A stretch of 64,000 nucleotides of DNA. Source: an uncultured Planctomycetia bacterium (lineage in GTDB: Bacteria; Omnitrophota; Gorgyraeia; Gorgyraeales; Gorgyraeaceae). The first letter of the stretch is position 1. Every line of letters begins with the position of its first letter. The stretch spans positions 215,399 to 279,398 of the forward strand of contig CAYPYS010000001.1 in NCBI GenBank assembly GCA_964415355.1, given 5' to 3'. Below the pieces are notes generated by a model that saw nothing but the letters and a program-made list of their open reading frames with translations, had not been told where the DNA came from and did no database searches. A program made the translations under genes and the position numbers. Below are positions 25,376 to 49,300 of the stretch, piece after piece.

Positions 25376-25384
25376 AAAGTTTTT

Positions 25385-25408: not shown

Positions 25409-25409
25409 C

Positions 25410-25446: not shown

Positions 25447-26331
25447 GGCCTTGTTCATATGCTTCGATATACGGATCTGGATAAATGACACTGCCAAAAG
25501 TATCGCGCCGAAGATAATGCCCTGGCTGCACGCATATCCAAATCTCGACGAACCCACCATCGAAGACAAAATCCTGGTCACAGGGACCTCTGTATGGTAC
25601 CCTGGCCCTCCTCCTGTCATTGAAAGTATCAATACAAAAACCTGCATCGTGCCGAGCACCGTAAGGATCGACACCAGGACAAACACAGGCACCATAAGAG
25701 GCGCAGTAACCTTTTTAAATATCTGCCATGAGTTTGCTCCGTCCACGCGCGCGGCCTCGTACAGCTGCCTCGGTATAGTCTGAAGTCCTGCCAAAAATAT
25801 AATAAAACCCCAGCCAAATCCTTTCCAGCAATGGATCATTGCCACGCACGTCAGCGCGGTCTTTGGATCCGAAAGCCAGTCCCGCACCAAATGCGACAAT
25901 CCCATCGCATGCAGCCAATGATTCAAAAGTCCGAAATTCCCGTCGTAAATCCAGCGCCACACAAGCCCGACGACCACCGCAGAAAGAACAGGTGGCAGAT
26001 AAAATATCACTCTGTAAACATTCCCGCCTTTTATGTCTCTGTCGCACGCCCACGCCAGCGTCAGCGCCAAGGCGTTCTGAAAAGTAAGCGCGATCAGGGT
26101 AATATACCCTGCCTGGCCCATGGCCTGCCACCAGATTTTATCGTAAAAGAAAAGCTCTTTAAAATTCCTGAAGCCTATGAAATTTTTCGCAAAATCAAAA
26201 CCCATTATCCCGTCCCACTCACAAAGAGAAAGCATGAAGACCTTGTAGAAAGGATAAATATAAAATACTGAGAACATCAATACTGCCGGCAACACAAAAA
26301 AGTAATTTTCAACTGTAGATTTTATCCGCAT
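25444..26331 (-). CDS. Carbohydrate ABC transporter permease (CUT1 family, MalF/UgpA-like)
   Basis: 295 aa with an EAA loop ...LYEAARVDGANSWQIFKKVTAPLMVPV.... Confidence 0.8.
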   Translation of the reverse strand: MRIKSTVENYFFVLPAVLMFSVFYIYPFYKVFMLSLCEWDGIMGFDFAKNFIGFRNFKELFFYDKIWWQAMGQAGYITLIALTFQNALALTLAWACDRDIKGGNVYRVIFYLPPVLSAVVVGLVWRWIYDGNFGLLNHWLHAMGLSHLVRDWLSDPKTALTCVAMIHCWKGFGWGFIIFLAGLQTIPRQLYEAARVDGANSWQIFKKVTAPLMVPVFVLVSILTVLGTMQVFVLILSMTGGGPGYHTEVPVTRILSSMVGSSRFGYACSQGIIFGAILLAVSFIQIRISKHMNKA

Positions 26332-26344
26332 AATTATATCCGCC

Positions 26345-26381
26345 TAAGTTTACACTTTAACGTTGTTGAAATGTAAACTTA
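26345..26381. repeat. PIE copy 13 (TAAGTTTACACTTTAACGTTGTTGAAATGTAAACTTA)
   Basis: Read directly. A family-C element follows immediately. Confidence 0.9.
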
Positions 26382-26383
26382 CG

Positions 26384-26420
26384 TGTCATTGCAAGGCACG
26401 AAGCGCCAAAGCAATCTCAC
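26384..26420. repeat. Family-C element GTCATTGCAAGGCACGAAGCGCCAAAGCAATCTCAC (only intergenic copy)
   Basis: Read directly. It shares the GTCATTGC.AG...GAAGCAATCTC layout with the in-ORF copies at 34697, 49777 and 62722. Confidence 0.7.
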
Positions 26421-27751: not shown

Positions 27752-27770
27752 ATTTTAAATCACGACTCGA

Positions 27771-28112
27771 TCAATTGGCTGCAAAAAGCCTTGACATGCC
27801 TTCGCCAAACTTAAGGCCAACGCCATCCTTCTCAACCCTTACAACCTCAGCCTCTCCTGTGAGTCGTGAAAAAGGAAAATCTCTTCTGTCGTCCTTAGGC
27901 ACTGATAAGTATATATTGAGCTTATCCTGGGGCTTGATATTCTTAATATCTATATTTATTACATATGCACCATGATAACTTAGGTTCAGAGTAAGCCCCT
28001 CTTGTGCCTCTCGCTTCTTATCGGCTGCGCCACGGTTAACGTTTACGGGAAGAGATAAATCTATCCTTTTAGACTGCCTCTTCTCCATAAAATCTCCAGC
28101 CCTCATCAACAC
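27771..28112 (-). CDS. PilZ domain protein (c-di-GMP binding)
   Basis: 113 aa. RQSKRIDLSLPVNV is an RxxxR-like motif. The ...TLNLSYHGAYV... beta-barrel and a downstream D.SxxG-like ...ISEGGV region follow. It is only 19 nt upstream of the SBP gene with no PIE between them. Confidence 0.6.
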   Translation of the reverse strand: MLMRAGDFMEKRQSKRIDLSLPVNVNRGAADKKREAQEGLTLNLSYHGAYVINIDIKNIKPQDKLNIYLSVPKDDRRDFPFSRLTGEAEVVRVEKDGVGLKFGEGMSRLFAAN

Positions 28113-28212
28113 CTCCTTTTTGAAAACGCTTTCTTGCTATGACTATACCACAACCCTTAAGATTTTAAAAGCTTTTTTTTATTTTTTTTCACCTTAACCT
28201 CACATTTTGTCG

Positions 28213-28264
28213 TTTCCCTCTCTTCGTAGGGGAGACTTAAGTCTCCCCTACGAAGAGAGGGAAA
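28213..28264. repeat. 52-bp perfect palindrome TTTCCCTCTCTTCGTAGGGGAGAC-TTAA-GTCTCCCCTACGAAGAGAGGGAAA (family D)
   Basis: Read directly. It is preceded by a T-run (TTTTTTTTATTTTTTTT at 28172-28190) and lies just 3' of the giant ORF. Confidence 0.85.
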
Positions 28265-28266
28265 GC

Positions 28267-28305
28267 TTAAGCATACACTTCAACATTGTTGAAGTGTATA
28301 CTTAA
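28267..28305. repeat. PIE copy 14, GCATAC/GTATAC variant (TTAAGCATACACTTCAACATTGTTGAAGTGTATACTTAA)
   Basis: Read directly. The giant-ORF stop TAA (28302-28304) lies in its right end. Confidence 0.9.
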
Positions 28306-31300
28306 GGGCACCAAGAAGCAGCTACAGGTGCTACCTCAGGATCTTCTGGGGGATTGATATTATTTCGCTCAGATTTAAAGAATTTAATAGTATGAATACC
28401 AGCGTATATTAAGAGAGCGATCAGAAAAATGATTAAAAGGGCAGTAATTGCTTCTGTGCCTGACGTTAGCGACGGTGAATGATTCTCGACATAACGGTGT
28501 AAGATTTGGTGAATATCAAAAAACGACATAAAGAACATGCTAAATCCGGATAGATAATCAAGCGTTTCTCTCTGCCCCAGAGAGCAAATTTCTAAAAACT
28601 CCTGTACATCATGAGTAGTATATTCATAACCATTATTCCCTACAGCATCTATTATCTCATCAATCCTAGGCTTTCTATCTAGCGCGAACTCTAATCTTTC
28701 AATCTCGTATTCAATTACAAGGCACAAATCAGCTGTATCAAACATTGGATCAAAAGCCCCATCTCTTTTACTATTTAACAAAACAAGCCTATCTCCATCT
28801 TTCGGAAACGGGCCATACTCCTGCCTTAGAGCTATAGCCTCGACAATAAAATAACGAATAGAAGACTTTAAATATGCCCTGAAAGAAGCTACTCGCACCT
28901 GATCTTTGAGTAAAAAGTAGAATAAATTAAAGTGACGACTTGCAAATATCAATTTATCCTCAGCCACTAAGCGTCTCATATCAGACCTAAATTTATGCAC
29001 GAATGGAAGATGAGCTTTGATCAATTCCTTGCTGACCTTACTTCTAATTGAACGACTTAGAGACAACAGTAAAATGCCAGATTCCATGCAATTTTTTTCT
29101 GTCCATTCTATATATGATCTGTCGCCTATCTGCTCCAAGAAAGATTCCAATCTTTCTTCATCTTCTGTAATCCTATCTGAAATATGCCTCTGTAGAGTTT
29201 TTGCTTCAGGTCTATCAAGAAAGATCTCACTCAATGCATAAAGAGAATTTTTATTAAGGCCTCTTAAAATAAGTCGCAATTTAATATGCAACTTGTCAGC
29301 TTCTGTGAGTAGCTGTGATAAATCTAATATTGGCAACGCGGCACTGCCGGCTAGCATATTTTGAAAACCAACCGTCACTTCTTCAGGATTTATTATAACC
29401 TTAGCAATCCAAGAATCAGATATCTCAAAATCAAAATCACTATTTTTAAATATTTCTACAGCTTTTGCATAATGTACAATTTCTTTTTCAGGACGACCGC
29501 TTCTTATGATTTTGGCAAGACAACTATCTTCTTCAATTCCCCTATTTCTTAACATGTTAATTAGCCTTAGAATCTCGACTTCGGAACGGCTGCTTTTTAT
29601 GATTTGAGCAATATGCACAGACCCTGTAACTCCTTTGTTTCCTTTTAGCTGTTCAATTAACCTTAAAATCTTATCTTCGGCACGACTAGAACCTATTATA
29701 TAAGCAATATGCGCACACTCTGCGATTTCTTTTGCCCGTAATGCGGTAATCAATCTTAAAATCTCATCCTCGGAACGCTTAGTGCTTATAATTTTAGCAA
29801 TATGCGCACCTTCTATAATACCTTTGTCTTCTAACTTGTCAATTAGGCTTAAGATCTCAGTTTCGGAACGCCTGCTTCTCATGATTTGAGCAATATGGGT
29901 AGTCTCTGTAATTCCATTCTCTTTTAGTACATTAATTACAGTCCAAATCTCATCTTCAGAACGACTACTACATATAATTAAAGCAACATGCGCACTCTCT
30001 GTAATCTCTTCTACTTTTAACTTGTCAATTAGGTTTAAGATTTTATCTCGAGAACGTTCGGTGTTTATAATTTTAGCAATATGCGTAAGTCCTGTGATTT
30101 CCTTTGCCCTCAGTGCAACAATTAGACTTAAAATATCATTTTCAGAACGACCACTTCTTATAATTTGAGCAATATGAGTACCTTCTATAATACCTTTGTC
30201 TTCTAGCTTGTCAATTAGTCTTGATATCTCATCTTTTGAACGCCTACTAGCTATGATCTGAGCAATATAAGCATTGTTTACAATTCCTTTTCTCCGAAGC
30301 ATCTCTATTACATCCAAAATCTTCTCTTCAGAACGACTGCTTCTCGCAATCATGGCAATATGCGCTCCTTTTGCAACCTTTCTTTCTTGCAATACATCAA
30401 CCAGGCTTAAAACATCCTCTTTAGAGCGCTTGTTACTTATTATTGTAAAAATTTGATAACTATTAAATAGGTAGCTATGATGTTGCGTTTCTCTTTTTCT
30501 CATAGTAATTAAAGCTTGCAAAGTGTCGAGCTTTATTTCAAGTCTTTGAAACCGTGAAATGCGCATAGCCCTCTCATTGTCAAACAGAAGCTTCCCGTCT
30601 CTTTTAATTCTACTAATAAATACCTGAATCTGAGGATTTATTTCGTTTCTTTCTTTCTCTGAATCAAACAGGAGTCTAATATTATTTATATTTTCCTCTA
30701 TCTGTGCTATCTCTCGAGACATCACAGATGAATGCGCCCTCTTAGGCGTCCCTGCAAAGGATGTCGTTGTCATGACAAAAAATACAAATCCATACACACC
30801 TGACATCACGAACATCTTAGAGATCGCTTCGTCTACTTGTAATAAATTGATAATAGCTCCTAAGCCTAAATATATAAGTACAGCAACTCCCAGGGCAATG
30901 AGAAGGTATCGTCGTTGGCGGGTTTCTTTGGCTGATTCCTTAGAAAGAAAGTCTAGTATCTCTTTAATATCTGCTTTGACTCCCTCAGGAACATTTGGTC
31001 CCGTATGCCAGCTTTTAACGATCATACCGGCTATCTCTCTATTTCTTTCTGCTTGTTCTCTGTTCTCTTCGGCGTGATTACGTAAAGATTCTGCTTGTCT
31101 GCGTCTCAGATCTGCCATTGAATAATCATTTTTCCTATCATATTCAAAAGCTTGTCTCTCTAATCTCTCAACTTCCTCATCTTGTTCTTTTGCCCTTTCC
31201 TCTAATTCTGCGGCCTTAGCTAAAAACTTTTCTACTTTTATAGAATTTCTCATGCGATACGCCGCACCTAACTCTCTTATTGCATCTTCAGTAGGCATTC

Positions 31301-34300
31301 TACGAGACAACCACCAGCTACGCAAACTAAAAACTATAAGCCAAACAAAAATTATAACTGCAACAATGGCAGAGACCATCTGCAATATCGAAAGCCACTG
31401 AATTATATCCGAAACTTCATAGCTGGAGAAATCTACAAACGGGGCAAAGGGTATAACTAGAGGAATATACTTAGTAATGTTTTCTCTTAAAGCCTCTATA
31501 ACATGTTCTTTATATCTCTCATAAGCATATTTAGGGGATATAGCTAAGTGCACCATTCTAACGCTGATGCCTTTTTTATCAAGAACACTAAAAATATGAT
31601 CAATTTCTCTTGCGATATTCTTAGAAGACGGTTTCTTCTTTTCTCTCTTTTTCCTCTTGTCCCTTCTTCCTTTAGGCCATTTTCTATTCGTAAAATAATC
31701 AAGGCAAAATGTTAACACTACTTGTCTTCTAATATTAGGCAACTCATTGACACTAGAGAAAATGCCTTCGAAATCCCTAAGGCCGAGCAAGCCATAATCC
31801 ATAATATCTAATCTGCTCCAAGACGGTCTAACCCACCAGATATTACAACCCTTGCGCCTAGCCCATACCACCCAGTTGGATTCATCTACCCTTGAAACCA
31901 AATTATGATCCGGATCATCTGAGTCATAATCAAATGCAATAACTGAATCACCGCCCCATAATAAATCCAATACTTTATCATGCGTATAAGTAACTTTTAA
32001 GTATTTCTCTTTTATTAAATAGCCACGTTTTCTTTTAAATATTATCCAATATAAAACAACTACAACAATAATCCAAAACACAATAGACCGAATATTTGAT
32101 AAACTCCCTCCACCAGAAGGCGAGCCAAACTGCAAGATCTCTGCGCTACTAAAACCCAAACCAAGCGTCGTTGCGCAAACATATGTAGCATCCTTTGTCT
32201 TGCGCCTCAGCCACTTTGCTACGTTGACTAAAGCTGCGCTTCCTATGATAATCGCCAAGGGGCTAAATTTTACCCGCCACATCAATCTACGACCAGCTCT
32301 TCTTTGCTCCTCTTCAAAATCCTCTATACCTAATTCCTCTTTATACCTCTCACCCTCTTGCTTCAGCTCTTCCATATGCTCTAATGCATTATATGCAGTC
32401 ACTGCATAGCCAAGATCTTCAGCATCGCAAAATCCCAGCTCTTCCATAACAATCCTCATGAAAACTCTCTTCATCGCATCCATCTTCAAATCCTCGTGCG
32501 TAATATCTCCTTTGATCCGAACTACCCGAATGCCTTCTAGAAATCCCCTGGCCTCTTCGTTTTCCGGAAGTCTTTCGAAAGCATCCGGATTTACCATGCC
32601 GTCTCCGAGCCCCCCGCTTCTCCCGCAGCCCAGGATACGCAAATCTTCAAAATCCAGAAACGGGAAGTCCTTATTTAACCAGTTGAATATCGCTGAATTA
32701 GATGAAGCTGCACATATAAGTGTGATATGAGGCAGGCCAGGATTATCTCTCTTTGCCTTATACATCCCCTCCTGCACCTCTTTTAAGAATTCGCTATCAT
32801 CGAGCGACTGCAGTAAGATTGTAAGATCTTCTTCAGGCGCCTCGCCTTCAAACCAGAACCATTTCTTTGATAGGCCCATAAGCCTCCAGAAAAGCGCCTG
32901 GCCCAAACCCTTCATCCATGTCGTGCCTAAAGTCGAAAGCCCATTTAAGGCAGGCGCGCCAAGCATAACCTCTGAAATCCTCTCGGCTATATGAGGATAC
33001 TGAGGCAGATCCTTGTACAGCGACCCTACGACAAGGCTCCCTATGCTTATGCCGAAAAGGACTATATCTCTATTTAACAAAAACGGGAAATCTAAAATCT
33101 CTTCTAAAAGTGGTATGATTTTTTCAATTTGGTTTTGTCCATACGTATACCTGCCTGCGTCAATATATCTATCCTTGTAGCAACCTATTGTTATGACTAT
33201 TGTTTCTTCCGCAAGTTCTCTCGCCCCTGAATGCGGATGCCATAAAACAAAATCTCCTTTTAGAGAAGGGTCCATGATTTCTTTTACCTTGACATTGCCC
33301 CAGGCAAAAAATTCAAGCGCACCATAGCCCGGGATATGTATGATGACTTTTTTATTACTATGCCCGCCGTTCATTTGTCCGACCGGGCCTCCTATGTGGA
33401 CCTCAAAAGAGCCGACATCCAACTGAATGATCTCTTGCCTAAACACCTTATCTCCCCTCACTCGCTCACCACTGCCTTCTATGCCATGAAACGGCATCTT
33501 CCATATCGCCAATTCTTCTTTAATAGAACTAAGGAGTTTTTTATTTCTTCTTTGGAGTTTCTTCTTTAGCTCCTCCAGCGCTTCTGCAGATTCTTTTGTG
33601 TATATATCTCCAAGGGCCTTTACAGCATCCATACGCTCTTCTGATCCCAGATCTCCCCGCAACACAATCTCTTTTAATTCATCTATGCGAGACGGCTCCC
33701 TGGCTTTGTGTGCTTTGTGCGTAAAAAAGTCTCTAAAGGTTTTCCAAATAACCAATAAAACCAATAGAGTTAAAAGATGTCTTGTCTCGCCGGGATTTTT
33801 TACGCGTAGACACGTGCAAGCTTCTTCTGCCTTTACATCATTACCAGCCTTGCCAAAACCATCGCCAAAATGACAAGCCTCCTCGACAAATCCATCTTCT
33901 CCGACCCTAACATCTAAATACTGCGCCAATAACCTGATCCCAATTGCTTTATTGCCAATATCTACGAATACGTCATGACTGCTACTAAAGGCAACAAAAG
34001 GCAAGGCGTGTTTTTTTCTTGCAGAATGTTTATTGACCCGTTCTGTAACTTCCAAAGCTATATATTCCAACAATGAACCAGCAACGCGTCCTTTCGGCAC
34101 CATGCCAACCGCCAGTTCTTTTCGAATTATTGTTGCCCCTACGCTTAATCTCTTTACGCTTTCTTCCAGCGCCTCTTGAGCAATATCCAATATCCTGCGA
34201 ACACTTCTTTTATCCCATCGCGTCTTGCCGCTCGGGTCCCATTCTTCTTTCGGAATCTCTTCTATGCGCCCTTCTCTATCTATCCTATACAAATAATTGC

Positions 34301-37300
34301 ACTGGCCTCCCATGATGTAAAACTTACCTATATCTTTTCTCTCAGGATAGTCAGGGAACACTTTCATCATCATGTCAATGATCCCCTGGAATTTTTGTCT
34401 ATATTTATGTGGCTCGTCAGGATGACTCAGCGCAGTCACAACAGCCACATTTATGCGAAACATCAATAGTATAACTATTAATGCCGCTAATAGGCCCTTT
34501 TTCAAAACACTGCCGCCCTGTTTATATAATGTGCCATCGCCGTCAAGAGTAACTAATTTTGGTCCTCTGGCAACAATTTTTCTCAATAGGAATTTCACTG
34601 TTGCCGCAAGAGGAGGCGAATGGAACATGCGGGCCAGGTATTTTAATATGCCGGATTTGTAGATAAGGTATGCGATTAGTAATAAAACAACGACTGTCAT
34701 TGCGAGAAGCAACAACGGCGAAGCAATCTCTAACTTTACATTCCAACGTTGTTGAAGTGTGAAGTTAAAGAGTAAAAACATAGGCATGGACATGGAGCTG
34801 CCTGGCCCATGAGTGTCTCTTTTTGTTCTCTCAGAAACCTTAAGCCTTTCGATAATATTTTTGCGTACCGAGTCAATGTCAAAACCACTCCCCGGGCCTT
34901 CTCCTATGAATCTTTCCACAAAATCGCCGCCCATCTCTTCAGTAGAAGGAGATTTCTTACCAAAACCCCCAGCCAACTCTGGCCCTATATGCGCCAATGC
35001 CTTCTTTTGATATGATGCAGCTTCTATCTTATCTGCATCTGGTACCAGACCTTTCATTGTCACATTATCTCTAGAATAGAAATAGAAATTGAATCCACCA
35101 GCCCATGGAGCGAGATAATATAAAACAATAATCTCCACATCCTTAAGACCCTCTGATTCACTTGACAAGTCTGTTAATACACTAAGTATCATGTCTGTAA
35201 CTACATTATGAGTGGGATGACCGTCTTCTCTATGCGGCATTATTACTACAAACTGCCCTTCTTCTCTAATAGCATCTTGATAGGCTTTTATAAATTCCTG
35301 AAACCTAATCTTCAATTTTCCAGCTGCTTCTATAAGTTCCTCACGGGATGGCATTACATCTGGGCTAGGTATATCAGGAATAATATTAAGATTCTCGACT
35401 ATTACAGCGCCTTCTCTCTCGCCAGATAAAACCACGCCGGCATTTCGCGCCTCCTCCCCTCTTATCTTTATTTTAAGGCTCTTTTCATCTACATGAGGCC
35501 TTGCCCTGTCTACATCATTCAAGATTATCCCTGCTTCGCCAGCGCTGAATACCATATTAATCATTATCACCTCATTCTCTGCGCCTGCTATAGCCATGCC
35601 ACCAGCTGCAATTTCCATGTCATCAGGGTGAGGCGAAGTAAAGATAAGCGGTATTCTTCTGGTTATTCTTATAGGGATAAATCCTTCGGGGGCCTTCTCT
35701 CCTTCAAATACAATAGCATGAGGCTGTTGTGAATCTGCGAGCACGCGTTCCCCATTTTTTATCCTGCCCACAACAAATGAATGAGCATATTCATAATCCA
35801 CTGCATCTCTTTCAGGAATCAATCCGTATCTTTTACCTAGCGTAGCAGCATGCTTCATGACCCAGTGAGTAATTTTTACATATTCGGTTCGGCGCGTCTG
35901 GCTTTTATGCTTACCGACAGCCTTTTTAACTCTATCTGCGATTTTTTTGCCAAAAGTGAAAACTAGGTTTACATATGAAGGATACTCAAAAGATTCATAA
36001 TAAAAGGTATATACATCCGGATAAACCTCGGCTCTATACTCTGTGACAAGCTCTCTGTTTTCTGGCGAATATGGCATCATAATAAAATCTGGCCTATAGT
36101 CGCCTAAAATATCTCCCAAGGCCTTTGCACTGTTTAATCTATACACCCTTATTTCGTTTCCATTAAGCCTTAATGCCTCAACAACATTACCGGCAAATAC
36201 CATATAATCATTTTCTACGACTTCAAACACTGCTACTTTCTTTCGTGCAGGCAATGGACATTTATTTATAGCCTCTGGTAAGTCAGGTTTATCGCTAAGA
36301 ATCACATTGCCGGATAGAGGAGACCAGTTTGACTCAGTATACCGAAGACAATTTAGATTTGCATTAATGTCATCTCTAAGACTCCTGACTTTCAAGACAA
36401 GAGATTCATCCTCTATGTTCCTCGCCATTGCCCCTAGAGTATCAAGTAGCGTTTTCTCTAAAGCAGGGAGCTCAGCAGGAATCCTCCCTGCATGGATAAA
36501 CGCAAAGAGTCTCTGAACACTTGAGGAGGGATAGGTTTTATTACGTTTCCGCAGGTCTTCTTCTAGAGACTGCCAGATTTGTTCGCAGTCCTGTTCCTTA
36601 AATACTCCTATAGCTTTTCCAGTCTCAAAAGTCAGCTGAACCGCTTCAAGGGCTTTGGGGTATAATGGACTCTCGGGATCAAGTACCATCCCTACCCAAA
36701 GTTCTTCAATCCTACGCAACAAACCATCTTCTTTAAAAAGATTGGCAAGCGGCACGACATTGACTGCCATAGTAACCATGGCCTTCACCCACTCATGCCA
36801 AATTGAATCAGCATTCTTGCCTGCATCCTCTGGAATGATTGCAGGATAATCTCTTTCTTCAAGGATTTCTTTAACGCGCCTTCGCTGAGCAATGTTATTA
36901 ATGCCCAGTCCTGCTGCTGCCAGAATAACCTTACCCTTCTTGCCTGGTATATAGACCATTGTCGGAACACCGTCTATTTCTCGCTCTTCTCTCCTGCCAG
37001 ATTGTCCTACAATTCCCCGAATCACGCATCCAGCAATGGATGTTTTGGTCTCATCAGACAATGTCTTTAACTGCTTTGAAGCACAGATTCTTTTAAATAA
37101 AGTATCAATAAACTCCTTATAATAAATCCCATTGCTCAAAAGAATAAACTTTGGTACCAATAGTTGAACGTCACCTTCGATCGCAAAATATCCCTGCCCT
37201 GCCATCACTTCTAAGAGCTCTACTAGTTCGTCCATGAAGCTCGTTAGTATCTTATCTGTATGCGGCGCAACAAAGACAACATCAGGGAGATGTCTGCTGC

Positions 37301-40300
37301 TAGAGGCCTCAGTGAGAGAAATTGATGCTCTATCCACAGTAATTTTCTGAATTTCGCCATCAACTTCAAGATATAATCCGCGTACTGGCCCGTTTAGTTG
37401 CTCAGCGCTCCTGCTTCCCTCCTGAACAATGATTACATCTGCCTTAGCATGATAAAACATAGCTATGTTCAGAGCACCGATTGGGTAAACACCTATAATA
37501 GTCCCGGTGCTACTATTTCCGGCCTGCTGTTTCTGCTCAGTAAAATAACCGAACAACTCATTGCTACTAAGCATAACCCCAGTAATAAAGCCTTGGCCGA
37601 GCCCAAAGAAATCCCCACCAGCCACGGATGAGGTGATTCCCAGCGAAGCCCACCCGGGCCATATTGCTATTCTTAAAACCTGCATAAGTGCAAAAATTAC
37701 AAAAGCTATCCAAAGAATATGCTCAATGATCTTTAAAGCACTGTTAATCTTCTGAAGACGAATTATCCTTTGAGACCTCGGTAGAACTATAGCTCCTCCG
37801 TCTGGCATTTCAATCAATCTGGACTGCACTTCATTCCAAAATTCCTTATACACATAAGCCCCGAACCTGATTCTTGCAATGCTAAATACAAAGAAACACA
37901 ACCCCAACCCTTGTCCTAATTCGGATGAAAGACCAAAAAACCCTCCTGCTTCTCGCCCTAACAGCCTTAGAAAAACAAATTTTCCTATGATTATAAATAA
38001 GTCCGCTATATTCGTCCAACCTCCAAAACCAAAGGGGATATAGTCACGATTATATTTATATACAATTTCTTCCCAGAAATTTGAAAACCAACTGCCTAAC
38101 ATTAAACCAAATAAAGCTAGATAAAAATTTGAAAATAATCCAAAGATTTGACTCTGGATAGCAATTTTCCATATAAATACGCCTAAGGTTATAAATACTA
38201 GTGCTGCGCTTAAAAAAGTCCTTAAAGGATTTTCTAAACGTGGGGTTTTAATTCCCCAGTCTTTCTTATCTGCTATGTAGCCAGCTACCCTCGCTATCAG
38301 AAACCCGACCAAAACAGACATGCCAATAACAATAAGCGGTGGTGCAGTCTCCCATAAAAAGTAGTGTAACTTTTCAAGCATATCAAATCCTGTCCTTGAA
38401 GACAGGTTTAATCTTGAAATCAAGGACAGGTTGCCAGCTGAAATAGCAAATGGTACAAGCAACAAGGCGTTGTTTTTCTGTTTTAAACTAAAAAAGATAT
38501 AATAAAAAAGCGAGACTAACATACTGGTGGCCAAGATTAAACCCCATATCAGCAACGTAGAATCAGATTGTATGGCTACCCATGTAACAGCCCATCGATA
38601 ATATAACCAATACGTCACTAGCATAGGCCCGACTGTAAGTATTAGTGCTCGCGCCATAGTTTTGCCTCGATCAGGGAAGAAAGAATTCTCAGACCAAAAA
38701 GCTCGTCTAAGCGACTTCGCTGCTATGGCCGTAGGTATAAAAACTGCTATGATGAGCCAACCAGCCATGGGAAGAGACAATAAACCTCTATAAATTGCTA
38801 AGGTAAAAGCCGTCAAACTAAACACGACCAAGGTATGTTTCTTACGCTGCGTATTATTAAACCACGCTTCATCATGTTCGCACCATCCGCTATAAGCTTG
38901 AATTTTTTGTCCCGAAATTTGTAACCATCTCCATGAAATTGTCAACATAAGGACAATTATTGGCAAGACAAGGATAACTAGTAGGTCAAATTCTGACAAG
39001 CCATATACCGCGCCATACAAAATCGTACCGGTCCCGAGCATCAAGATAACCAGGATAAAGATCAATACAAAAGATCTCCAGCCTAAAGATATCCAGCGCG
39101 GGACCTTTGATGCGTATTGTTCGTAATCACTTCCAAACTTATCTTTTAAATAACTCTCTTCTTTTATCGACTCTTTTTTAACAGACGAGCTAGTTTGAAG
39201 CGCCACGAATAATCCTGATATTAACGCGATTATCCAGGTAAGGGTCTTAGCATCCATTGGATAGAATAGCGTTGCAATAATAGAGGTTATAAAGCTAGAG
39301 AAAATTATAACATAACTAATGTATATGGGATTTCTGGTCCATCTGTAAGGGCCTTTGGCAACAAGGGCATCGGGGTAAATTTCACAACGAGTAATGATAA
39401 GATGTGGATCTATATATAGGTGTGCGTAATTGAGGAAAATACAGCTGGCAACTAAAATGCTTGCCGGCCAAAGCAAGATAGGATCGATAAGACCTAGAAT
39501 AAAGGCAAAAATTACAGAAACAAGCAACTGTCTTTGTTCGCACTTAAGATACCGCCATAGACGTATAAGGGCATAAGCAGAAATACCTAAAATGACAGCA
39601 ATCAGTTTTATGTTCACCTCTGGCGGTGGCTGATTCTCGACAAAGTGCCGTAAATTTTCAAGGATATTGAGCTGACTAAATCTGTCATTGCGAGCAATGA
39701 CAGATGGAGACACCTTAGCAAACAAGGAAACGCCTAACATGAAGCTTGAATTATCCTGATCGGATATGAGGGTGATTGCCGCAAGATTTGCCAGAGGGTG
39801 AGAGGCAATAAGGCTATGCTGTATGCGCAATGGTTCAGGATCAGCTTTAATAAGTCCCAGCTTTATAGCTAGTTCTACAGTCTCAAGACGTTTTTGAAGT
39901 CTGATAGTAGGTTTCACAGCCCGTCCCAAATGAGATAGTCCTAGATGTTCTCTTGCATTACTAAAGGTTATGCTAACATTGGACTGCGGGATAGATATCC
40001 TCTTGGAAATCTCTTTATTTGTCAGCCCTTGAGCCATAAGGGTTAATATTTCTTTTTCCCTATCAGTAAGCTGAGACATCTTTACAAGCTTTTTAAGTGG
40101 CTCAGGATCAGCTTTAATAAGTCCCAGCTTTATAGCTTCTTCAACAGTCTCAAGACGTTTTTTAAGTCGTGCAAGCAAGTTTCCCCATCCCAAAGGAGAT
40201 AGCCCTAGATGTTCCCTAGCACTTCGATAGAGTGCATTAATATTTGGCACTGTAGTAGAAAGCTTCTCAGCGATCTCTTCAATTGTCAATCCTTGAGCCA

Positions 40301-43300
40301 TAAGAATCAATATCTCTTTTTCTCTATCAGTAAGCTGAGACATCTTTACAAGCTTTTTAAGTGGCTCTGGGTCAGCTTTAATAAGTCCCAGCTTTATAGC
40401 CCGATTAACAGTCTCAAGACGTTTTTTAAGTCGCGTAGCCAAACTCTTACCATGTCCCAAAAGAGGTAGTCCTAGATGTCCTCTGGCGCCTCGATAGCGT
40501 GCATTAATATTTGGCACTGTAGTAGAAAGTTTCTCAGCGATATCTTCGATTGTCAATCCTTGAGCCATAAGGATCAATACCTCTTTTTGCCTCTCACTTA
40601 GACGAGGTGTATTGATAAGCTCTCTAAGTGATTTAGGATCAGCTTCAATAAGTCCCAGTTTTATAGCCCGCTCTACAGTCTCAAGATATTTTCTAAGCTG
40701 CATAACCAAGGTCTTGCCACGTCCCAAAGGAGGCAATCCTAAATGTTTTCTGGCATTACTAAAGGTTATGCTAACATTGGACTGAGAAATAGAAAATTTC
40801 TCAGCGATCTCTTCGATTATCAGTCCTTGAGCCATAAGAATCAATATCTCTTTTTCTCTATCAGTAAGCTGAGACATCTTTGCAAGCTTTCTAAGTGGCT
40901 CAGGATCAGCTTTAATAAGTCCCAGCTTTATAGCCCGCTCCACAGTCTCAAGACGTTTTTTAAGCCTGATAACATGGCTCACGCTTTTTCCTAAATGAGA
41001 TAGCCCTAGATGTTCTCTGGCGCGTTGATAGTGTTCATGAATAGTGTCTATATTAATAGCGATTTCTTCAGCGATCCTTTTATTCGTCAGTCCTTGAGCC
41101 ATAAAAGTTAATACCTCTTTTTCCCTCTTACTTAGACGAGGTGTATTGATAAGCTCTCTAAGTGATTTAGGATCAGCTTCAATAAGTCCCAGTTTTATAG
41201 CCCGCTCTACAGTCTCAAGATATTTTCTAAGCTGCATAACCAAGGTCTTGCCACGTCCCAAAGGAGGCAATCCTAAATGTTTTCTGGCATTACTAAAGGT
41301 TATGCTAACATTGGACTGAGAAATAGAAAGTTTCTCAGCAATTTCTTTATTCCTCAGCCCTTGAGCCATAAGGGCTAATACCTCTTTTTCCCTGTCAGTA
41401 AGCTGAGACATCTTTACAAGCTTTCTAAGTGGTTCAGGGTCAGCTTTAATAAGTCCCAGCTTTATAGCTAGTTCTACAGTCTCAAGACGTTTTTTAAGCC
41501 TGGTAGCAGGTCTAACAGCTGGTCCCAAATGATCTAGCCCCAGATGTTTTCTGGCGTTTCCATAGATTACATGAATATTGGAAGAGGAAACAAGAGAGAA
41601 AGTCTTAGCAATCTCTTTATCTGTTAACCCTTGAGCCATAAGGATCAATACCTCTTTCTCTCTATCAGTAAGCTGAGACATCTTTACAAGCTTTCTAAGT
41701 GGTTCAGGGTCAGCTTCAATAAGTCCCAGCTTTATAGCCCGCTCTACAGTCTCAAGACGTTTTTTAAGTTGTACAAGCAAGTTCCCGCGTCCAAAATGAG
41801 TCCGCCCTAAAAGATGTTTGTGGGTATTCCGGAAGATTTGACCAACATTACCCTTGGTAATAGAAAGCTCTTTAGCGATCTCTTCATCCCTCAGCCCTTG
41901 AGCCATAAGGGTCAAGATCTCTTTTCTTCTTGGAGACAAGTAAGGTGGATTTATAATTTGCCTCAATAGCCTGACATCAGCATCAATCAATCCGCGCTCT
42001 ATGGCTTGGTTTAATCCATAATCAGTTGAATAGGCTCTGTCCAGGGCCTGCCTAAACGCGATATCTATATCCTGGGTATGTTCAAGGCCTGATCGCTGTA
42101 AGGCCTTTACCCATATGAGAAATGCGTACAAAAACTCTCCGCCTTTTAGTTCTTCAAATGCATCCGTAACATCCCCATAGCTTTGTCCTATAAGTCTGCC
42201 CTTCCACGCCTTCATCAAGTTAACTACATCTTCTTCCATCTCCTCTGTTTTTATTGAAAATATAATCGCATTCCTCAGCTTATTAATTAACTGATCACTC
42301 AATGCTTTCCAGCGCTGGCGCTTCATGTGCCAGAAATCATCCGAACAATCAAGAATCTCATCCCAGCCGTCAAACCTAACAAATGCCCTACAAAATAGCC
42401 TGAGAAGCGATTCTGTTTCAGTATCGGCGGAAAGAATTCCCTCAGGCACAGAACTTGAACTAACAACAAGATCCGCATATTGGTCGTGTCCGTCCATTGG
42501 CAGATCTTTAACTATCTGTTCCGGAAAGGCTACGGCCACCTTAAAGGCCTCCGGCATCTCTTCAAGAAGCCTGTCATAATATCCGCCTCCTCTTCCAAGG
42601 CGCTTCCCCTCCCTTGTGAACAGAAGCCCTGGGACAAGGATCAGGTCAGGGGCCCCACAAAACAACTCGCACGATTCTTTGGGCTGCAAAATGTCATACG
42701 GACCGGTCTCCAGATTTTCTCCAAGATTCTGTATTATACGAAATAGGAGAGCATGCGTTTCATCTTCTTTATCTACGCAGGGAAGGGCTACGGTTTTACC
42801 CTGTTCGAGAGCTTCTTCAATTAAGGGGACAATTTGTGGTTCAAGAGGCATAGGATAATACAGAAATACCACTTTTGTTTTCTCCCAGCGCTGCTGAAAC
42901 AACTGGTGTTCTTCCAAGGCTTTAAAAAGAGATTCGTTTCTTTGAATTGCTGCTCTTTTATCGAGCTTTCTTAAGCGCTTCTTCGCCATCGCCCTCAGCT
43001 GCTCTTTTTGCTCGTGAATATTAAGTTTCTTTCCTTTTTTAATAGCTATTACTACCGCTATGATTGCAAATGAAGAAACTGCCTGCGAGTGTAAGACGAA
43101 CTGCTTTAAAAAACGCAATGATATAAAGTCATAGAATTTCAGCAAAATAAATACAAAAATAATCCCCAATATTATACGAAAGATAAGATTCCTAATAGTA
43201 TTTCCTTGAGCAACCACTATATCGTCTTCCTGGTAACCTGCTTTCTTAAGATTTTCAACCGCTCGACCTTTTATCCTCTTCATTTCTCTTAAACCCAATG

Positions 43301-46300
43301 CGCTTTTGATGATAAGAGCCGCGCTCAAAATTAGAAATATTGAAAAAGCTATCGATATAAATAGAAATCTTCTATATATATCCTGAATAAAAACGGCCCG
43401 GGCAAGCCCAAAGAAATCCCCACCAGCCACGCCCCGTACGAAATCTCCGATTTGCGTACGGGGCACGGTTGAAGCGATCCCCAAAGTAGCCCACCCGGGC
43501 ACAAATACCTTTGTCATTGCGAGGCCAAAGAGCGCAGTGACTCTTGTAGAAGTTTTCTTATCCGCAATGAGGCCACCTTTAATATCTTTATAAGAGAAAG
43601 CAGCGGCAGCCGCCGCTACAACTCTATTTCCCACCTCAAGTTTCCTTAAAATAGATGACACATTATTCATGGCAGGCGCTCTTCCTTCTCCAATGCCTAA
43701 TACTTCTGTTATCTCCCTATTGCTTAGGCCTTTCATTACTAATTGCAAGACTTCTTTTTCTCTGCCGCTGAGTTCATCAAAACCTTTCTCGCGATAAAAA
43801 GCATCATCTAACCTTATCAGCCCTTTTCTAATGGCTATTACCACTGCTTCTATTTTATTTGCTGCTTGTAGTTTTTTAAGAATAGGCTTTCTGTGTTTTA
43901 ACCCAAATGACTTATATCCTAGAGCAAGCGCCATTTCCTTATCAGAAAGGCCTTGCGCAAGAAGCAAAAGAATTATTCCTTGAAACACTGTCAACCTTGT
44001 TTTAAAAATCTCTTCGGTCGCAATCGAAAGGTTCCCGACAGATATCGTCTCAGCTTGACTACTAGCTCTCCCATCTGAATCCACATGCCTGCTAACATCA
44101 GGGAGAAATAAAACCTCGGCTACGCTGCAAGAAATGCGGCATAAGAAACCAATGCCCAAAGGAGTCCTGATGTATTTCCATATATAAGAAAGAAGTTGCG
44201 TTAGTTCATCTATAGCCTCTTGACATGGATTTAAATAAAGCTCCTCAACCGAAATCGAACTGAGCCCATAGGCCTTTGTAGCGGCATTTTTAAACCGTTT
44301 TATGTTATCCAGAACTTTTTGCAATAATGAGCTTATGCACGCTAATTGCAGCGGCGACTCTTTTATCTCTGTTTCTATAAATAATAAACAATCTAATAAA
44401 CTATTTAAAAGTTCCTTTGTTTCCCATAGGGTTTTCTTTTTTAATGTCCTCCTTCCGCGCCCGGATCCATTCTCATCCACGAATTCAAATAAGGCATTGA
44501 TTTTTATTCTTGCGATTGAAAAAGCAGTAATGATCTTGGTAAAATGAGGCCCCGCGCTCCCAGGAATTCCCGAAATATCATATGCTTTTACCCAACCAGG
44601 CGCAGGAGACCTTAAAAACTCCTCTGTTGCGTCGATCCATTTTCTATAGTAATCAAAAGCAGCATCCTTCACCAGGTCTATAGAGCGTGACGATAGAGGA
44701 AAATCTTTTTCTGTCAATACATTGCCTCTTTTAAAGTATCTTATGCGGATCGCATCTTCGCCCCAATATAAATCAACCACCTTCTCCGAAGTAGGCAGCC
44801 AGACTAAGACAGCATATTTTGTCACCCCGCCTATAAATAAACGACGCAGAGCCAAACCTTCCCTTAAAATAACCTGGGCAGATCTGGCTTCTGAATCTTT
44901 CACCGTAGCCTTTGTGCTCAAGAAACGAATTTTAGCCCCATTAATCCATATGCTTCTATGTGTTTCGCCGATAAAAGTCTCTTCCAAAACTGCAGGATAT
45001 GCCCTATCTAAATCCATATCAAGAATCAGGCCAACAAGATAATCTTGCAGTTTCATGCTATATTTATACACAGGCACCTCTTCCTTAATACCAATAATGC
45101 CCATATCGCGGCCATCTACGATAACATGCCTTTTCCCATTTTTAAAAGGGAACTCTAGACTACAAACCAGCTCGCAAACATCTTCCTTATACGCAACAAT
45201 CTCAGCCGATACTAGCTGCTTTGCTCCTGCCTTTTTATATACAAGTTTCCAAATTACCTTAAACCTTTCCATTCCCGGAAGAGAAAGCATATTGGAAGGC
45301 GCGACCCTTAAACACAAGCCCTCTAAGCCCGCACGTCCTCTTGCATCAAGGTCAGCTTCCTGATAGCCGATTAACCCCTCTTCCAAAAGCGATGGCACGC
45401 TTGCGATAGCCGGAGCAAATGCCATTGAAGCCAAAAATGGAACTACATTTCCTCTTATAGCCTCCCAGAATACAATACACCCATAGACTAACAAAGACGT
45501 CATGAGTAAGAAAAGCACAAGAAATAGCCAGCCTCTATACTTAAGCTTGCTAATATAGGCCTTATAGGCCTTGCCTTCTGGTGTTTTATGCGCTCCTAAA
45601 AATAAAATAGCTATAAATTCCGGGTATAGCCTGCCCAATAACGACAATAAACCAAGCATGCTAAACCAGGCCACAGCTATTCCAGCTACCCCCCATGCTG
45701 CCTGAAGCGCCAGGGTATATGGTAAAATAAATATTGATATTAAAAACGTAAGGAAATAGCTTCCAACCCCCCAATATAAAACAGCAAATGCAAAATGTTC
45801 CAATCTCCCATGCCTAAACATACGAATTCCAAACGATATAATATAAAAAATTAAAATTGCAAGCAAAATCATAGTAAACCAAATTCCCGGTTTGTCAAAA
45901 AGCGCGATCAATTTATCTATATCCGGATCCGGCGGGCCGTTTTCCCATAGAGAATAACGCAGGATTTCCTGGATGCTGGAGAATGAAACCCACAATGCCG
46001 CCAGAGAAAAATTTAAATTCGAACCTGATGAGTCTTGCTTGCCAATGCGGTCGTCAACTGACGTAGTCAGTATTTCCAAACATTCATCTTTAAGCATAAG
46101 TTTGGTTAAAGATGGTATTATTTTCTCAAAATCGCTTATAATGCGATTTGCCGTATCTACCTGTTCATCTGTAGCTACTCTCTCTCCATCAAACTCCCAA
46201 TGCTCTACTCCCCATGACCAATATCTTAAGAATACCCAGAAGTATATAATGACAAAAATCGGCTGGATAGCAACACTGGGTTCATAGTCTGAAAATATAG

Positions 46301-49300
46301 GTATCCATATACCGTTAAAATGTGATTTCAATCTAAAATAATCTAAAGAACAAAAACTGCTTATTGTGCTGTGACTTCTGCTCCCACCCCTAACCCATTG
46401 CTCAAGAAGCCAATCAGCCCCGTCTTCCTGCGCTTCGACTGACAGATACACTCGTATTGGCTCATCCTTCCTATTTCTAAACTCTAACCCACATGCCATA
46501 TCTTTTTCTGCTTCTCTACTAAGATAGTTTTCGATTTGCTTTAAAGCTACATCGGAATCGCCAACAATACCAAGCTTTTCCTTTAGTGCGCGCATCAGAC
46601 CTCTTGCAACTATGGGTTCATATGAGTAAAAGAAAAGTTTTGCTACATGCGCCATGAACTCTGATTCTAAAGTTTCCTCAAAAATATCAAAAGGATAAAT
46701 TTGTAAACCTATCTCATCAAATACACGCGTCAATATGCCATTCTTGACTTCAGCAAAGCCTCTTTCGATCCTTATTTCTTTTCTACCCTGCCATAGTATT
46801 TGACCGGCTAAGAAAAAGCCACCATTTGGACCTGTTGCAGCATTCTCAATGACGCCGTCAGGATGTTCCTCTAATACTCGCCCGGGCATTACAAATGGAT
46901 ACGCTTTCACAAACCTGCCTTCTACGCGCCTTGCCAACCCATCCACTATCTCTATCTTCGCGCCTGACCATAAAGCATTCCTAGAATCAGGACCATTATG
47001 ATAAAGATGAGTGCCAACTGCGCCATATATATCGGTACACCTATAATCCTCGAATACTATAATGCCATTATTTACTTTTATATTATGGGCCCACGCCAGG
47101 GCGCCTACGCCCCCTCTTCCAGTTTTAACCTCATTATTCGAATCTGAAGAGATCCCTGTTATCACGCAATAGCCTTTTTTGCCATACCTATCGAGAAAAT
47201 CTCCTGGTACCATGCCTGGAAAGGCATTTATAAAAGTACCCTCTACCAGCTTCCCATCCTCTATTACCGCATCCACAAATAGCGCATTTTTTCCTTCTGG
47301 GCCAATATCGCGGATCAATTCTCCTGTTGCATTATAGACCTTTGTTACACGCCCTTCTTTATCATCTGAGTTTACCTTTTCTACTCGCAGCATTAGTCCT
47401 TCCTCATTCTCATGTCCTTTCCACTTATCCCACCATGGCTTTACTAAATAAAGGCCTCCTCTATTATTCAACTTTGCATCGAGCACCACACAATCAGGGT
47501 AACGTTCAAATAAATCTCCTGGCACACGAGGAGGAAACGTCCCTACAAAAGTACCTCCGACTAACTGACCGTCTACTATAGTGCCTCCATCATATATAGC
47601 ATTTATTCCTTCACCTCTGCGATAACTGCGGATATCTCCTTCGTCTCCTTCTAGCATTACCATCGATATAAACATTAAACAAAATTCCTGACTAGGCAAC
47701 AATCCTTGCGTCATTGTGAGTGCCGTAAAAATAATGCCCAAGAGCAAGGTGAGATTATTTTGGTCGAATTCAGGAGGTTTATTAAATAACGCCATGATTA
47801 CTATGGCGACAGAGGCTATTAGCAGAAATACATCTGCCAGGTTCGCCACATCAAAACCTAGAATAACTATCCAATTTACAACATAGCCTGTAGTTAATTT
47901 TTCTGTAATGTTACCCAAAGTGCCTCCTGCTAAGATACCGAGCATAGCTAGCATAAAAGGCCAGGCTTTTGTATTTTTCCAGTGCAAGAGAAACCATAGG
48001 ATAAGAGAGAACATTAGAGTAGTTAGAATAATAGTAAAAAATACATTCTCATTATCTTTTATAACTTGTATATGCGTAAGCTGAATAACTTGTCCAAATA
48101 ATGGTGTCTTAAGAAGGCTTTTAATGATATCTACATAAGAAAGCCCCTGCTCTGATAGCACATCAAGCTGTGCAGCCGTAAGTGCAACGGGAATATTCAA
48201 CTTAACCCACAGCTTAGTGCCAATATCTATCGCAAAGGCAAGGCATGCTGCAATAAACGCCATCAACCTGCGTCTATGCTGTTTAAGCCATGACCATAGA
48301 AATGGAAAGATAATAATAGGAGCTTGAGAAGCAAACCTTACGCTGGACCTGAACATCGCGATAGGGTTAAAATTTATACGTGAACTATGCAAGAAAACTA
48401 TTTCTCCTCCCACAGATTGATATAATATAAAACATCCTTTAAAGAATAAGGAAAACATGAGACTCAAAATCCCGCACCAAAAAATAAACTTCCATTGAAG
48501 CCCAGTATTTTCCATTCCTGATATATCCAAAGAATATGCCTGTCTGTCCAGTGCATCTGTAAACTGTGCCAGCATTCTAGAGCACTCTGAATATGACGCA
48601 GCCATACCAAACCAGCCCAATACAATTATGTAGATACCCTGCGCTGCCTGAATAGCTAAATTTTGCGGCAATATAAGGCTCGATACAAAATATACCGCTA
48701 AATAACTCAAAGCGCTTTCTAATAAAGTCACGATCAAGAATCGCCGGAGTGACCAGCCTTGCTTTGCCCCGCGAATCCCAGAGAATACAATATAAGTAAT
48801 TAAAGTTGCAAGTAAACCCATAGTAAACCAAACTTCTATGTTGTCAAAAAGTCTGAATTCATGCGCAACCGACAAACATTTTTCTAAGCTCCCACTTTGA
48901 CATTGTTGAAGCGCAAGCTTAATGTTATCAGATAAAAGCGCAACTGGTGCAAGAAATAGGCCATATAATGGAGCTTTCTCTTGTTTTCTTGCTGAAGCAC
49001 ACGAAAAAATTGGTCTGTCAAAGTATAATAAATACACCAGAAAAACAAAAAACCCTACTATTTCCCCGGATATCATGCCGATGAAATCCAAAGGATCTTT
49101 TACCCTGCCAGCTATCCCTCCTAGAAAGTCTTTTGACCTATAGAATTCTAACCATAAGAAAATAAAAATAAACACAACAAACAAACCTGCTAATTTTATA
49201 ACAAGCTGTAATAGCGGCCTGTTATTTTGTGAAGGCCTGTCAAAAAACAAATAACCCATTATAAAAACAATTCCAGTCAGGCCAATAGAAATCCCATAAT

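Follow-up and report, generated by a model that had tools for sequence, protein, structure and literature searches.

A translated intergenic-type palindrome and its stop-loss repair inside a giant open reading frame

The giant open reading frame and the repeats at one of its junctions

The stretch of DNA analysed here, which we call the window, comprises 64,000 nucleotides (nt) of contig CAYPYS010000001.1 (positions 215,399 to 279,398; assembly GCA_964415355.1) from an uncultured bacterium labelled Planctomycetia and placed by GTDB within the Omnitrophota. Its minus strand carries a giant open reading frame (ORF), and our subject is a point inside this ORF where two short repeats, the 37-nt palindrome PIE and a second hairpin repeat, E3, lie side by side between two enzyme modules and are translated in frame. 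An earlier note on this DNA had taken the place for a fossil gene boundary, at which an intergenic element is followed by an in-frame ATG and a signal-anchor-like helix. We find that the junction is a healed ORF interruption built of intergenic-type repeats, in which a single substitution has removed a stop codon of the palindrome, and that the ATG belongs to E3. The features concerned are the following, with residues numbered from 63917.

28302..64000, minus strand: giant ORF, open to the window end; an intact PIE (28268-28304) supplies its stop with a TAA
34908..35642, minus strand: upstream module, PIG-L-like deacetylase (aa 9426-9579, Pfam PF02585, E 1.5e-11)
34731..34767, minus strand: PIE relic, TAACTTCACACTTCAACAACGTTGGAATGTAAAGTTA, translated (F)NFTLQQRWNVKL
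34743..34745, minus strand: lost stop, TGG = W9725, at PIE positions 23-25, which are TGA or TAA in every other copy
34695..34730, minus strand: E3 repeat, GAGATTGCTTCG - CCGTTGTTGCTT - CTCGCAATGACA, translated EIASPLLLLAMT, abutting the PIE relic with zero gap
34698..34700, minus strand: in-frame ATG, M9740, within the E3 right arm GCAATGACA and followed by TVVVLLLIAYLIYKSG
34659..34721, minus strand: predicted transmembrane (TM) segment, aa 9733-9753, SPLLLLAMTVVVLLLIAYLIY (Kyte-Doolittle 19-residue window, peak 2.85)
33771..34565, minus strand: downstream module, ISN1-like HAD (aa 9785-10049, Pfam PF06437, E 1.5e-50)

The ORF of 11,871 codons starting at 63917, as it had been listed, is only the part that falls within the window, for the frame is open through the window end and exceeds 28,000 codons on the 173-kb JGI contig Ga0118727_1000073, where the same ORF is called as 28,837 aa and itself reaches the contig end. 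The 11,871 residues in the window contain 85 hydrophobic segments and, according to Pfam, form a mosaic of divergent enzyme domains that stand alone elsewhere. The last conserved motif of the PIG-L-like module, GGDFVERF, occupies aa 9663-9670, and the TAA of the PIE relic lies ∼47 residues beyond it. Four of the seven nearest PIG-L homologues (P0085, P0104, P0105 and P0113) end 12-38 residues after the corresponding GGxF(A/V)ERF motif, while the remaining three continue into other sequence, one of them straight into TM helices. On the other side, the ISN1-like match covers profile positions 145-407 only, the N-terminal region of the family being replaced by a TM helix, and its closest relatives (28-41% identical) are stand-alone, mostly eukaryotic proteins with a different N-terminus. 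When 1.84 billion representative proteins were scanned with HMMER, the sole match to cover the two modules together was the protein itself, each of the others lying on one side or the other. The PIE relic thus lies where two genuine modules meet. Searches with the junction protein found no orthologue in genome contigs or metagenome contigs, and there is no paralogue of the 34731 junction within the giant ORF; the 90% cluster of the C-terminal fragment holds strain-level fragments only, and word-index protein searches with the junction and the PIG-L module gave no matches in an index that also missed the protein itself.

In its intact state PIE is an intergenic element. The consensus, TAAsTwTACAyTTyAACrwyGTTrAArTGTAwAsTTA, is a 37-nt near-perfect palindrome with stop codons in all three frames of both strands, and 15 intact copies, all intergenic, are spread over the 28 kb that follow the giant ORF (837-28304). 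Our census of 124 full copies consists of these 15, a further 108 from loci of other metagenome-assembled genomes (MAGs) and the copy at 34731-34767. That PIE is otherwise strictly intergenic, as had been noted, holds for 15 of the 15 other window copies and all 108 full copies elsewhere, so that 123 of 124 are intergenic and the only copy inside a long ORF is the one at 34731-34767. Copies with two flanking genes separate 95 co-directional, 3 divergent and 3 convergent pairs; the remaining copies lie close to the end of a contig or a long way from any called gene. The distance to the next start is typically 10-40 nt, as described in the earlier note, but its companion statement, that the upstream stop lies within the end of the element, is true of only 8 of the 15 copies in the window and of 37 among 101 in all. 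All three frames are closed in 236 of 248 strand-reads, and the upstream gene enters PIE in frame 2 in only 5 of 101 intergenic copies. Intact copies have a 17-bp stem plus 2-5 bp of complementary flanks, fold with -20 to -30 kcal/mol and score 52-67 bits against a covariance model built from 69 copies; stem positions 4/34, 6/32, 7/31 and 11/27 covary, the flanks are variable yet complementary, and the palindromic symmetry leaves no strand preference. About three quarters of the present intergenic regions hold a PIE.

A pattern scan of the GTDB species genomes located PIE in three MAGs. It is abundant in CAYULJ01, labelled Planctomycetia, and occurs, among the matches listed, once each in the Omnitrophota MAG UBA10183 and in DRR093005_bin.42. 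Identity of the element between genomes is 95-97%, compared to ∼45% for GspF, the one comparable protein, and the PIE-bearing MAGs have no DNA similarity to the window besides PIE. Rfam holds no family matching PIE, E2 (a further hairpin repeat, described below) or E3, and we found no description of a PIE-like element in the literature on Omnitrophota and Velamenicoccus; the family appears to be so far undescribed. Reading of the flanks revealed no consistent target-site duplication. In CAYULJ01 there are also 56-nt variants with the same arms, in which the loop is swapped for a ∼19-nt GC-richer insert (…ACCACTTCGTGGCACAGGCTTTCCC…; L030 1234-1289, L033 2857-2912, L008 2626-2681, L020 454-509, L014 142-197 and L053 4419-4474), and at 8561-8636 the window has a tandem PIE pair of the subtypes GTATAC and CTTTAC, 2 nt apart.

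The copy at 34731-34767 departs from this pattern while being recognisably a member of the family: a profile made from the 15 window copies finds it with an nhmmer E-value of 6e-9, and the covariance model gives 44 bits (E 1e-7), under the intact range. The presence of a degenerate PIE inside the giant ORF, read through in frame, is therefore confirmed. It is read as ...MSMPMFLLF NFTLQQRWNVKL EIASPLLLLAMTVVVLLLIAYLIYKSG... within the open frame, the predicted tryptic peptide DTHGPGSSMSMPMFLLFNFTLQQR running into the PIE relic and LEIASPLLLLAMTVVVLLLIAYLIYK through E3. Its stem has 14 Watson-Crick pairs, one G-U pair and two mismatches, which makes it among the most degenerate of the 124 copies, at the tail of the family distribution of mismatch counts (2,1). 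The predicted RNA fold (-15.8 kcal/mol, z -4.9) is weaker than that of every intact copy. The flanks TCTT and GAGA still pair, extending the palindrome to 45 nt; only in this extended form is the length a multiple of three, as had been stated for the element, the core being 37 nt.

The ORF reads the relic in frame 2, and the 5′ TAA of the element is kept out of frame, in agreement with the earlier note. At positions 23-25 the expected TGA is TGG. All 123 other copies have A at position 25, where the 34731 relic alone has G, and among the 248 strand-reads a frame 2 without a stop occurs once, again in this relic. Comparison with the family thus shows that a TGA to TGG substitution removed the stop at this place. 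The relic is ∼3 changes off the consensus; the other departures, one synonymous (position 7 or 31) and one conservative (11 or 27), jointly break two stem pairs. A substitution of an invariant base that opens a frame of more than 28,000 codons fits selection for read-through and not a mis-assembled gene boundary. Because a consensus PIE closes three frames and the relic is open only via TGA to TGG, the frame was formerly interrupted, and the junction represents a healed break in the ORF.

The second repeat, E3, was found by tracing a recurrent peptide motif of the ORF, (V/F)(I/A/T)(A/T)RND(I/V)F, every instance of which is encoded by ...CGCAATGAC.... The arms at the junction (GAGATTGCTTCG and CTCGCAATGAC(A)) match the family consensus at 24 of 24 positions, and a hidden Markov model (HMM) built from 137 metagenome copies places its top match in the window at 34694-34732 (E 7.7e-10). 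The inner hairpin has been lost (fold z -0.5, compared to -3.2 and -2.0 in intergenic copies), while the 86-nt composite of PIE and E3 folds with -24.7 kcal/mol (z -3.4).

These arms also account for the ATG. The earlier note was right that an in-frame ATG at 34698-34700 opens ∼2,130 codons (2,132 from M9740 to the stop at 28302), with the distance from the element being 30 nt and not 28 nt. This ATG belongs to the E3 repeat and is not a fossil start codon. The GCAATGACA ATG is present in every E3 copy; the 30 nt before it contain no motif resembling a Shine-Dalgarno (SD) sequence and are 37% purine, at the 1st percentile of 105 real PIE-to-start spacers (mean 69%); and the TM helix starts seven residues before the Met, E3 encoding the first third of the segment, including the SPLLLLA that the helix needs. 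With the ATG inside a repeat arm, no SD-like motif and the Met in mid-helix, the interpretation of ATG plus signal anchor as a fossil gene start fails; the occurrence of an ATG at this point calls for nothing beyond chance and the content of the repeat. Two in-frame TTG codons, at 34713-34715 and 34710-34712, lie ahead of it.

The sequence itself is secure. Three contigs (L001, L003 and L004, from JGI samples 3300009128 and 3300009374 and ENA assembly ERZ23499057) are 100% identical to the window over 500 nt spanning the junction and differ from it by 3, 19 and ∼20 single-nucleotide polymorphisms (SNPs) in neighbouring genes, which effectively excludes a sequencing frameshift. The alternative raised in the earlier note, that an assembly or sequencing frameshift hides a real stop and wrongly merges two genes, has a possible target in the T5 homopolymer at 34774-34778, 7-11 nt upstream of PIE, where one extra T would put the TAA in frame. 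Against this, the three independent assemblies agree across the junction despite their different neighbouring SNPs, the TGG substitution needed for read-through is present, and the unique loss of the frame-2 stop (0 of 123 other copies) would be an unexplained coincidence if frame 2 were untranslated; we regard such an error as very improbable. A chance resemblance of coding sequence to the two consensus sequences, for which nothing speaks besides the AT-rich composition, is more improbable still, given the E-values of 1e-7 to 6e-9 for PIE and 7.7e-10 for E3 and an excess of E3 arms (11 matches compared to 0.16 expected), and can be neglected.

As a separate observation, the strain contigs show zero SNPs in the last 8 kb of the giant ORF (28302-36331; 5 kb for the shorter L002) and 9 to ∼20 SNPs (L001-L004) in the next ∼9 kb of ordinary genes (15444-28301), which points to a recent sweep or to recombination, or else to exceptionally strong constraint on the end of the giant ORF.

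E3 repeats and a second palindrome relic within the giant frame

Allowing up to one mismatch, we count 11 matches to the E3 right arm CTCGCAATGACA across the window, ten of them at seven sites in the giant ORF (aa ∼380-398, 1180-1193, 2837, 4692-4713, 6800, 8075 and 9730-9741) and one in the neighbouring intergenic regions. The sites are as follows.

49777..49847: E3 pair cassette, with an antisense E3 at 49808-49847 (plus strand) and a sense right arm at 49777-49799; translated ...MSLQGAMGDEAISTGLRHFTRNDIF..., before WQHGPPD and a TM helix
62722..62783: E3 pair cassette of the same kind, translated ...SEAISTGLHYFARNDVF
39681..39699, minus strand: E3 right-arm relic, a perfect palindrome TGTCATTGC-TC-GCAATGACA, translated VIARND
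55396-55413, 43510-43525, 60337-60348 and 60362-60373: similar E3 right-arm relics
26383..26420, minus strand: the only intergenic E3 in the window, adjoining the intact PIE at 26345-26381

The paired cassettes read ...DEAISTGL(R/H)xF(T/A)RNDIF... and stand ahead of W(Q/E)xGPPD and a TM helix. The intergenic copy, which folds as a nested hairpin, is our reference for the normal state, and intergenic E3 with the same two arms is also found in the CAYULJ01 MAG. In the two full intragenic copies that were folded, the arms are kept and the inner hairpin is lost (z -0.5 and -0.06).

In metagenomes the E3 arm pair occurs at at least 120 loci with variable self-complementary inner stems. It is mostly extragenic there, 115 of a sample of 139 copies having no ORF of 50 codons or more on both flanks; ten copies of this sample are read through by ORFs that extend at least 100 codons in both directions. 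On an unrelated 9.4-kb contig (L140, 1583-1620), a MurB gene has its FAD_binding_4 domain divided in frame by a cluster of E3 repeats, which shows that E3-type repeats can colonise coding sequence. Many linkers of the giant protein are translated sequence of a kind resembling repetitive extragenic palindromic (REP) repeats. E3-type repeats read through within long ORFs were also seen on the unrelated metagenome contigs L101, L138, L077, L127 and L087, the ORF on L101 being open for at least 2,394 codons.

PIE has left a second, older trace in the giant ORF.

48885..48921, minus strand: second PIE relic, TAAGCTTGCGCTTCAACAATGTCAAAGTGGGAGCTTA, translated (I)KLALQQCQSGSL in the same frame as the first relic
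48859..48918, minus strand: 60-nt (20-aa) extra segment LALQQCQSGSLEKCLSVAHE, present in module A and absent from the paralogous module B

This relic is more diverged (covariance model 33.5 bits, E 3e-5; nhmmer E 0.03; fold z -3.6). Its positions 23-25 (48897-48899) are CAA instead of TAA or TGA, so that the frame-2 stop is again destroyed, here through position 23, which is T in all 124 other reads. The relic lies within a duplicated unit of ∼340 residues: module A (aa ∼4690-5080) and module B (aa ∼2820-3200) are colinear on both sides in DNA and protein alignments, module B lacks exactly 60 nt, and at the homologous site module B has TTTAAA in the same phase as the TAA of the relic. The simplest reading of this comparison would be that module A gained the segment at an out-of-frame TAA already present there, with a clean loss in module B as a possible alternative; ∼26 nt of the segment lie beyond the palindrome, more than the gain of a PIE would give. 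By eye these 26 nt have some likeness to a mini-E3, for which the E3 HMM gives no match. Three paralogous units switch partners at this site, just upstream of 'LFDxxxxWFTM'. The flanks of the two relics have no similarity outside the element, which indicates that the relics are not copies of each other together with their flanks. No further translated PIE relics were found in ∼340 kb of loci from the other PIE-bearing MAGs, where four apparent cases (L055 1748-1782, L016, L010 and L048) turned out to be antisense ORFs or ORF-start artefacts.

Intact PIE also has a regular intergenic partner. E2, a second hairpin repeat of the form GGATTCCCGC-loop-GCGGGAATGACA with the conceptual translation IPAFAGMT, lies at most 14 nt from a PIE in seven of seven copies, three of them with essentially zero gap (window 13695-13723, 25381-25409 and 8504-8550; also L007, L013, L043 and L045). 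At 13724 and 25410, PIE followed by E2 forms the layout of real intergenic regions.

Origin of the junction

How the two repeats came to lie in the frame can be read in more than one way. We give about an even chance to a secondary colonisation, in which the repeats entered a pre-existing linker between modules, much as Rickettsia palindromic elements do, and the ORF was then split and healed. E3 would probably have arrived first and become part of the TM segment; PIE would later have landed beside it at an out-of-frame TAA, splitting the ORF, and the split would have been repaired by the stop-loss substitution TGA to TGG. The outcome would be a 25-residue linker and TM-helix start (NFTLQQRWNVKL-EIASPLLLLAMT) between the PIG-L-like module and the TM-anchored ISN1-like module, and the ATG and the 'anchor' would be by-products of E3, no gene having started there. 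A sequential arrival is suggested by the unequal ages of the two repeats, PIE being ∼3 changes from consensus while the inner hairpin of E3 is wholly gone. For colonisation we also count the empty site that the second relic has in its paralogue, the presence of E3 in frame elsewhere together with its being commoner in this ORF than in adjacent intergenic DNA, and the use of frame 2 by both relics, which keep their TAA, instead of the one-step frame-1 route of a mutated TAA. Other points weigh against it. The zero-gap PIE and E3 copy a real intergenic layout, as seen with PIE and E2 at 13724 and 25410, and independent landings at one spot in an ORF of this length would be very unlikely (rough estimate <1%) unless they were targeted or the pair was mobile as such. 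The site is where the PIG-L-like family ends in four of the seven nearest homologues, the combination of modules is unique, and a TM segment starts 6 residues after one relic and 15 after the other, much as ∼14 of 18 ordinary genes here start with a TM helix or signal peptide (17% at random ORF positions). Insertion of 37 nt would throw the ORF out of frame, the 34731 copy showed neither a target-site duplication nor an empty orthologous site, and the mobility of PIE is itself an assumption.

The other origin, to which we give a real though smaller share of belief, well short of an even chance and with a small remainder left to other histories, is a primordial boundary: an upstream cistron and a TM-anchored ISN1-like cistron, with PIE and E3 between them, would have fused by stop loss, possibly together with a T6-to-T5 slip at 34774-34778, one T added to the present T5 run putting the PIE TAA in frame. 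The gapless composite would then be what it resembles, a former intergenic region, and the PIG-L-like module would have had its own C-terminus here, the ∼47 residues to the TAA being set beside the 12-38 residues past the motif in its homologues. The unique pairing of the two modules and the TM helix within six residues would follow too, and the ORF is pieced together from domains that elsewhere form separate enzymes, with the second relic at a point of partner switching. On the other hand, this origin leaves no relic of a start codon or SD sequence, for the ATG belongs to E3, and it has to accept a TM helix that depends on E3-encoded residues, two events in the less common frame, a second relic whose paralogue is continuous without it, and just two PIE relics in 35.6 kb where about three quarters of today's intergenic regions hold the element; no split orthologue was found in protein, genome-contig or metagenome-contig searches. 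The stop loss proposed in the earlier note stands in the form of the TGA to TGG substitution, while its former separate gene of ∼2,130 codons has the smaller probability just given. The two origins share one immediate ancestor, an intact PIE whose TGA split two frames, as well as the final TGA to TGG change, and part only over the earlier history; 'fossil boundary' is correct in that limited sense. Compatible with either origin, though in our view unlikely, is a locus that still works partly as two units, the hairpin serving for mRNA processing or as a pause site while the last ∼2,130 residues would also be made separately from an internal start at M9740 or at the TTG codons 34713-34715 and 34710-34712. 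The residual folding of the relic (z -4.9) and of the composite (z -3.4), the in-frame series TTG, TTG, ATG after the hairpin, and the topological awkwardness that a single TM helix between two cytoplasmic-type enzyme domains would seem to entail are in its favour; the missing SD-like motif, the lack of promoter evidence and a hairpin weaker than every intact copy speak against it. Colonisation followed by healing remains our preferred account of the junction.

A broader proposal goes beyond this site, namely that the giant ORFs of the lineage grow by serial read-through fusion of neighbouring cistrons, PIE being the normal cistron insulator. We hold this to be doubtful, with the balance somewhat against it. 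If it were true, PIE relics and E3 cassettes (EAIS...ARND...WQxGPPD-TM) would be scars of former intergenic regions, and the module junctions of the protein of more than 28,000 residues would record the history of its assembly.

Known systems, significance and further features of the giant frame

RNase III sites and hairpins between the cistrons of polycistronic mRNAs are well known, for instance in phage T7 early mRNA. By analogy, intact PIE might be compared with these, as it lies between nearly every co-directional pair, near the upstream stop; it differs from T7-type hairpins in being conserved in sequence across distant genomes, palindromic without strand preference and furnished with stops in all frames. 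E2 and E3 resemble REP sequences, bacterial interspersed mosaic elements (BIMEs) and REPIN doublets in being short hairpins with conserved arms and a variable inner stem, usually extragenic and often in inverted pairs. Unlike REP and BIME sequences, E3 is translated here, at seven sites in one ORF and in a recurrent cassette (EAIS...ARND), and its intragenic inner hairpin is lost. As in a stop-loss gene fusion, a stop at a module junction is now a sense codon and a former non-coding repeat is now a linker; no split orthologue, relic start or ribosome-binding site was found, however, and interruption with repair fits at least equally well.

Among the properties reported for Rickettsia palindromic elements (RPEs) are that these in-frame palindromic repeats within protein genes are translated and tolerated in loops or linkers (Ogata et al. 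2000, as reviewed in PMC10969869); other MITE and REP insertions inside genes belong to the same class. PIE and E3 are likewise translated in frame as an extra peptide, the second relic having a paralogous empty site and E3 recurring in the L140 MurB gene. PIE has no sequence relationship to the RPEs, and at 37 nt it is shorter than these (∼100-150 nt), carries stops in six frames, is unreadable without a rescuing mutation and is otherwise strictly intercistronic. The giant protein has much in common with the Omnitrophota giant proteins of the 'archaeovorin' type (10.1101/2023.11.21.568195 and 10.64898/2026.06.07.730766), being longer than 10,000 aa (here more than 28,000 codons), with TM segments by the dozen and a patchwork of divergent enzyme domains. 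PIE is shared with the Omnitrophota MAG UBA10183, though it is found mostly in a MAG labelled Planctomycetia. A SecA_DEAD helicase domain is present in most Omnitrophota giant proteins (10.1101/2023.11.21.568195); Pfam finds none in the window's 11,871 residues, the C-terminal part of the protein, of which ∼17,000 further residues lie upstream. The words fusion, intergenic, palindrome, hairpin and inverted repeat are absent from both 10.1101/2023.11.21.568195 and 10.64898/2026.06.07.730766.

The components of the present case are therefore known: giant Omnitrophota-type ORFs, REP-like repeats, in-frame repeat insertions and stop-loss fusions. New are a six-frame-stop intercistronic palindrome inside a giant ORF with an identifiable rescuing mutation, and the finding that many linkers of a giant protein are translated REP-like repeats. 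On how genes with 30,000 to more than 100,000 codons arise in bacteria, the locus offers a concrete, datable scar, either of the fusion of cistrons or of selfish or regulatory palindromes that repeatedly break giant ORFs and let them re-heal. The assembly of giant genes becomes testable by comparative data as complete Omnitrophota genomes appear. For annotators, the junction is not an assembly error, and PIE and E3 profiles can flag true and healed boundaries in giant ORFs.

Some further features of the giant ORF were noted. Directly after the PIE that holds its stop, a long perfect hairpin, TTTCCCTCTCTTCGTAGGGGAGACTTAAGTCTCCCCTACGAAGAGAGGGAAA, lies at 28239-28267; it could be where transcription of the giant gene really terminates. 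Near the C-terminus, at 29475-30383, is a tandem array of about ten copies with a 93-nt (31-residue) period (…HIAQIIRSxRSExEILxLIxxL…) and weak Pfam matches. Eight tandem 89-residue (267-nt) helix-turn-helix repeats of the LuxR/GerE type occupy 39831-41950, with further single copies at 60876-61670, towards the window-proximal end of the ORF; such DNA-binding domains are an unexpected content for a membrane-threaded giant protein. Finally, three modules resembling signal peptidase II (Peptidase_A8; 51600-52000, 47800-48250 and 37970-38210) and two ICMT/PEMT-like methyltransferase modules (50900-51300 and 39300-39600) are embedded in the ORF. Membrane enzymes of these kinds are normally small and stand alone, and their presence here fits growth of the protein by accretion of modules and by duplication within it.

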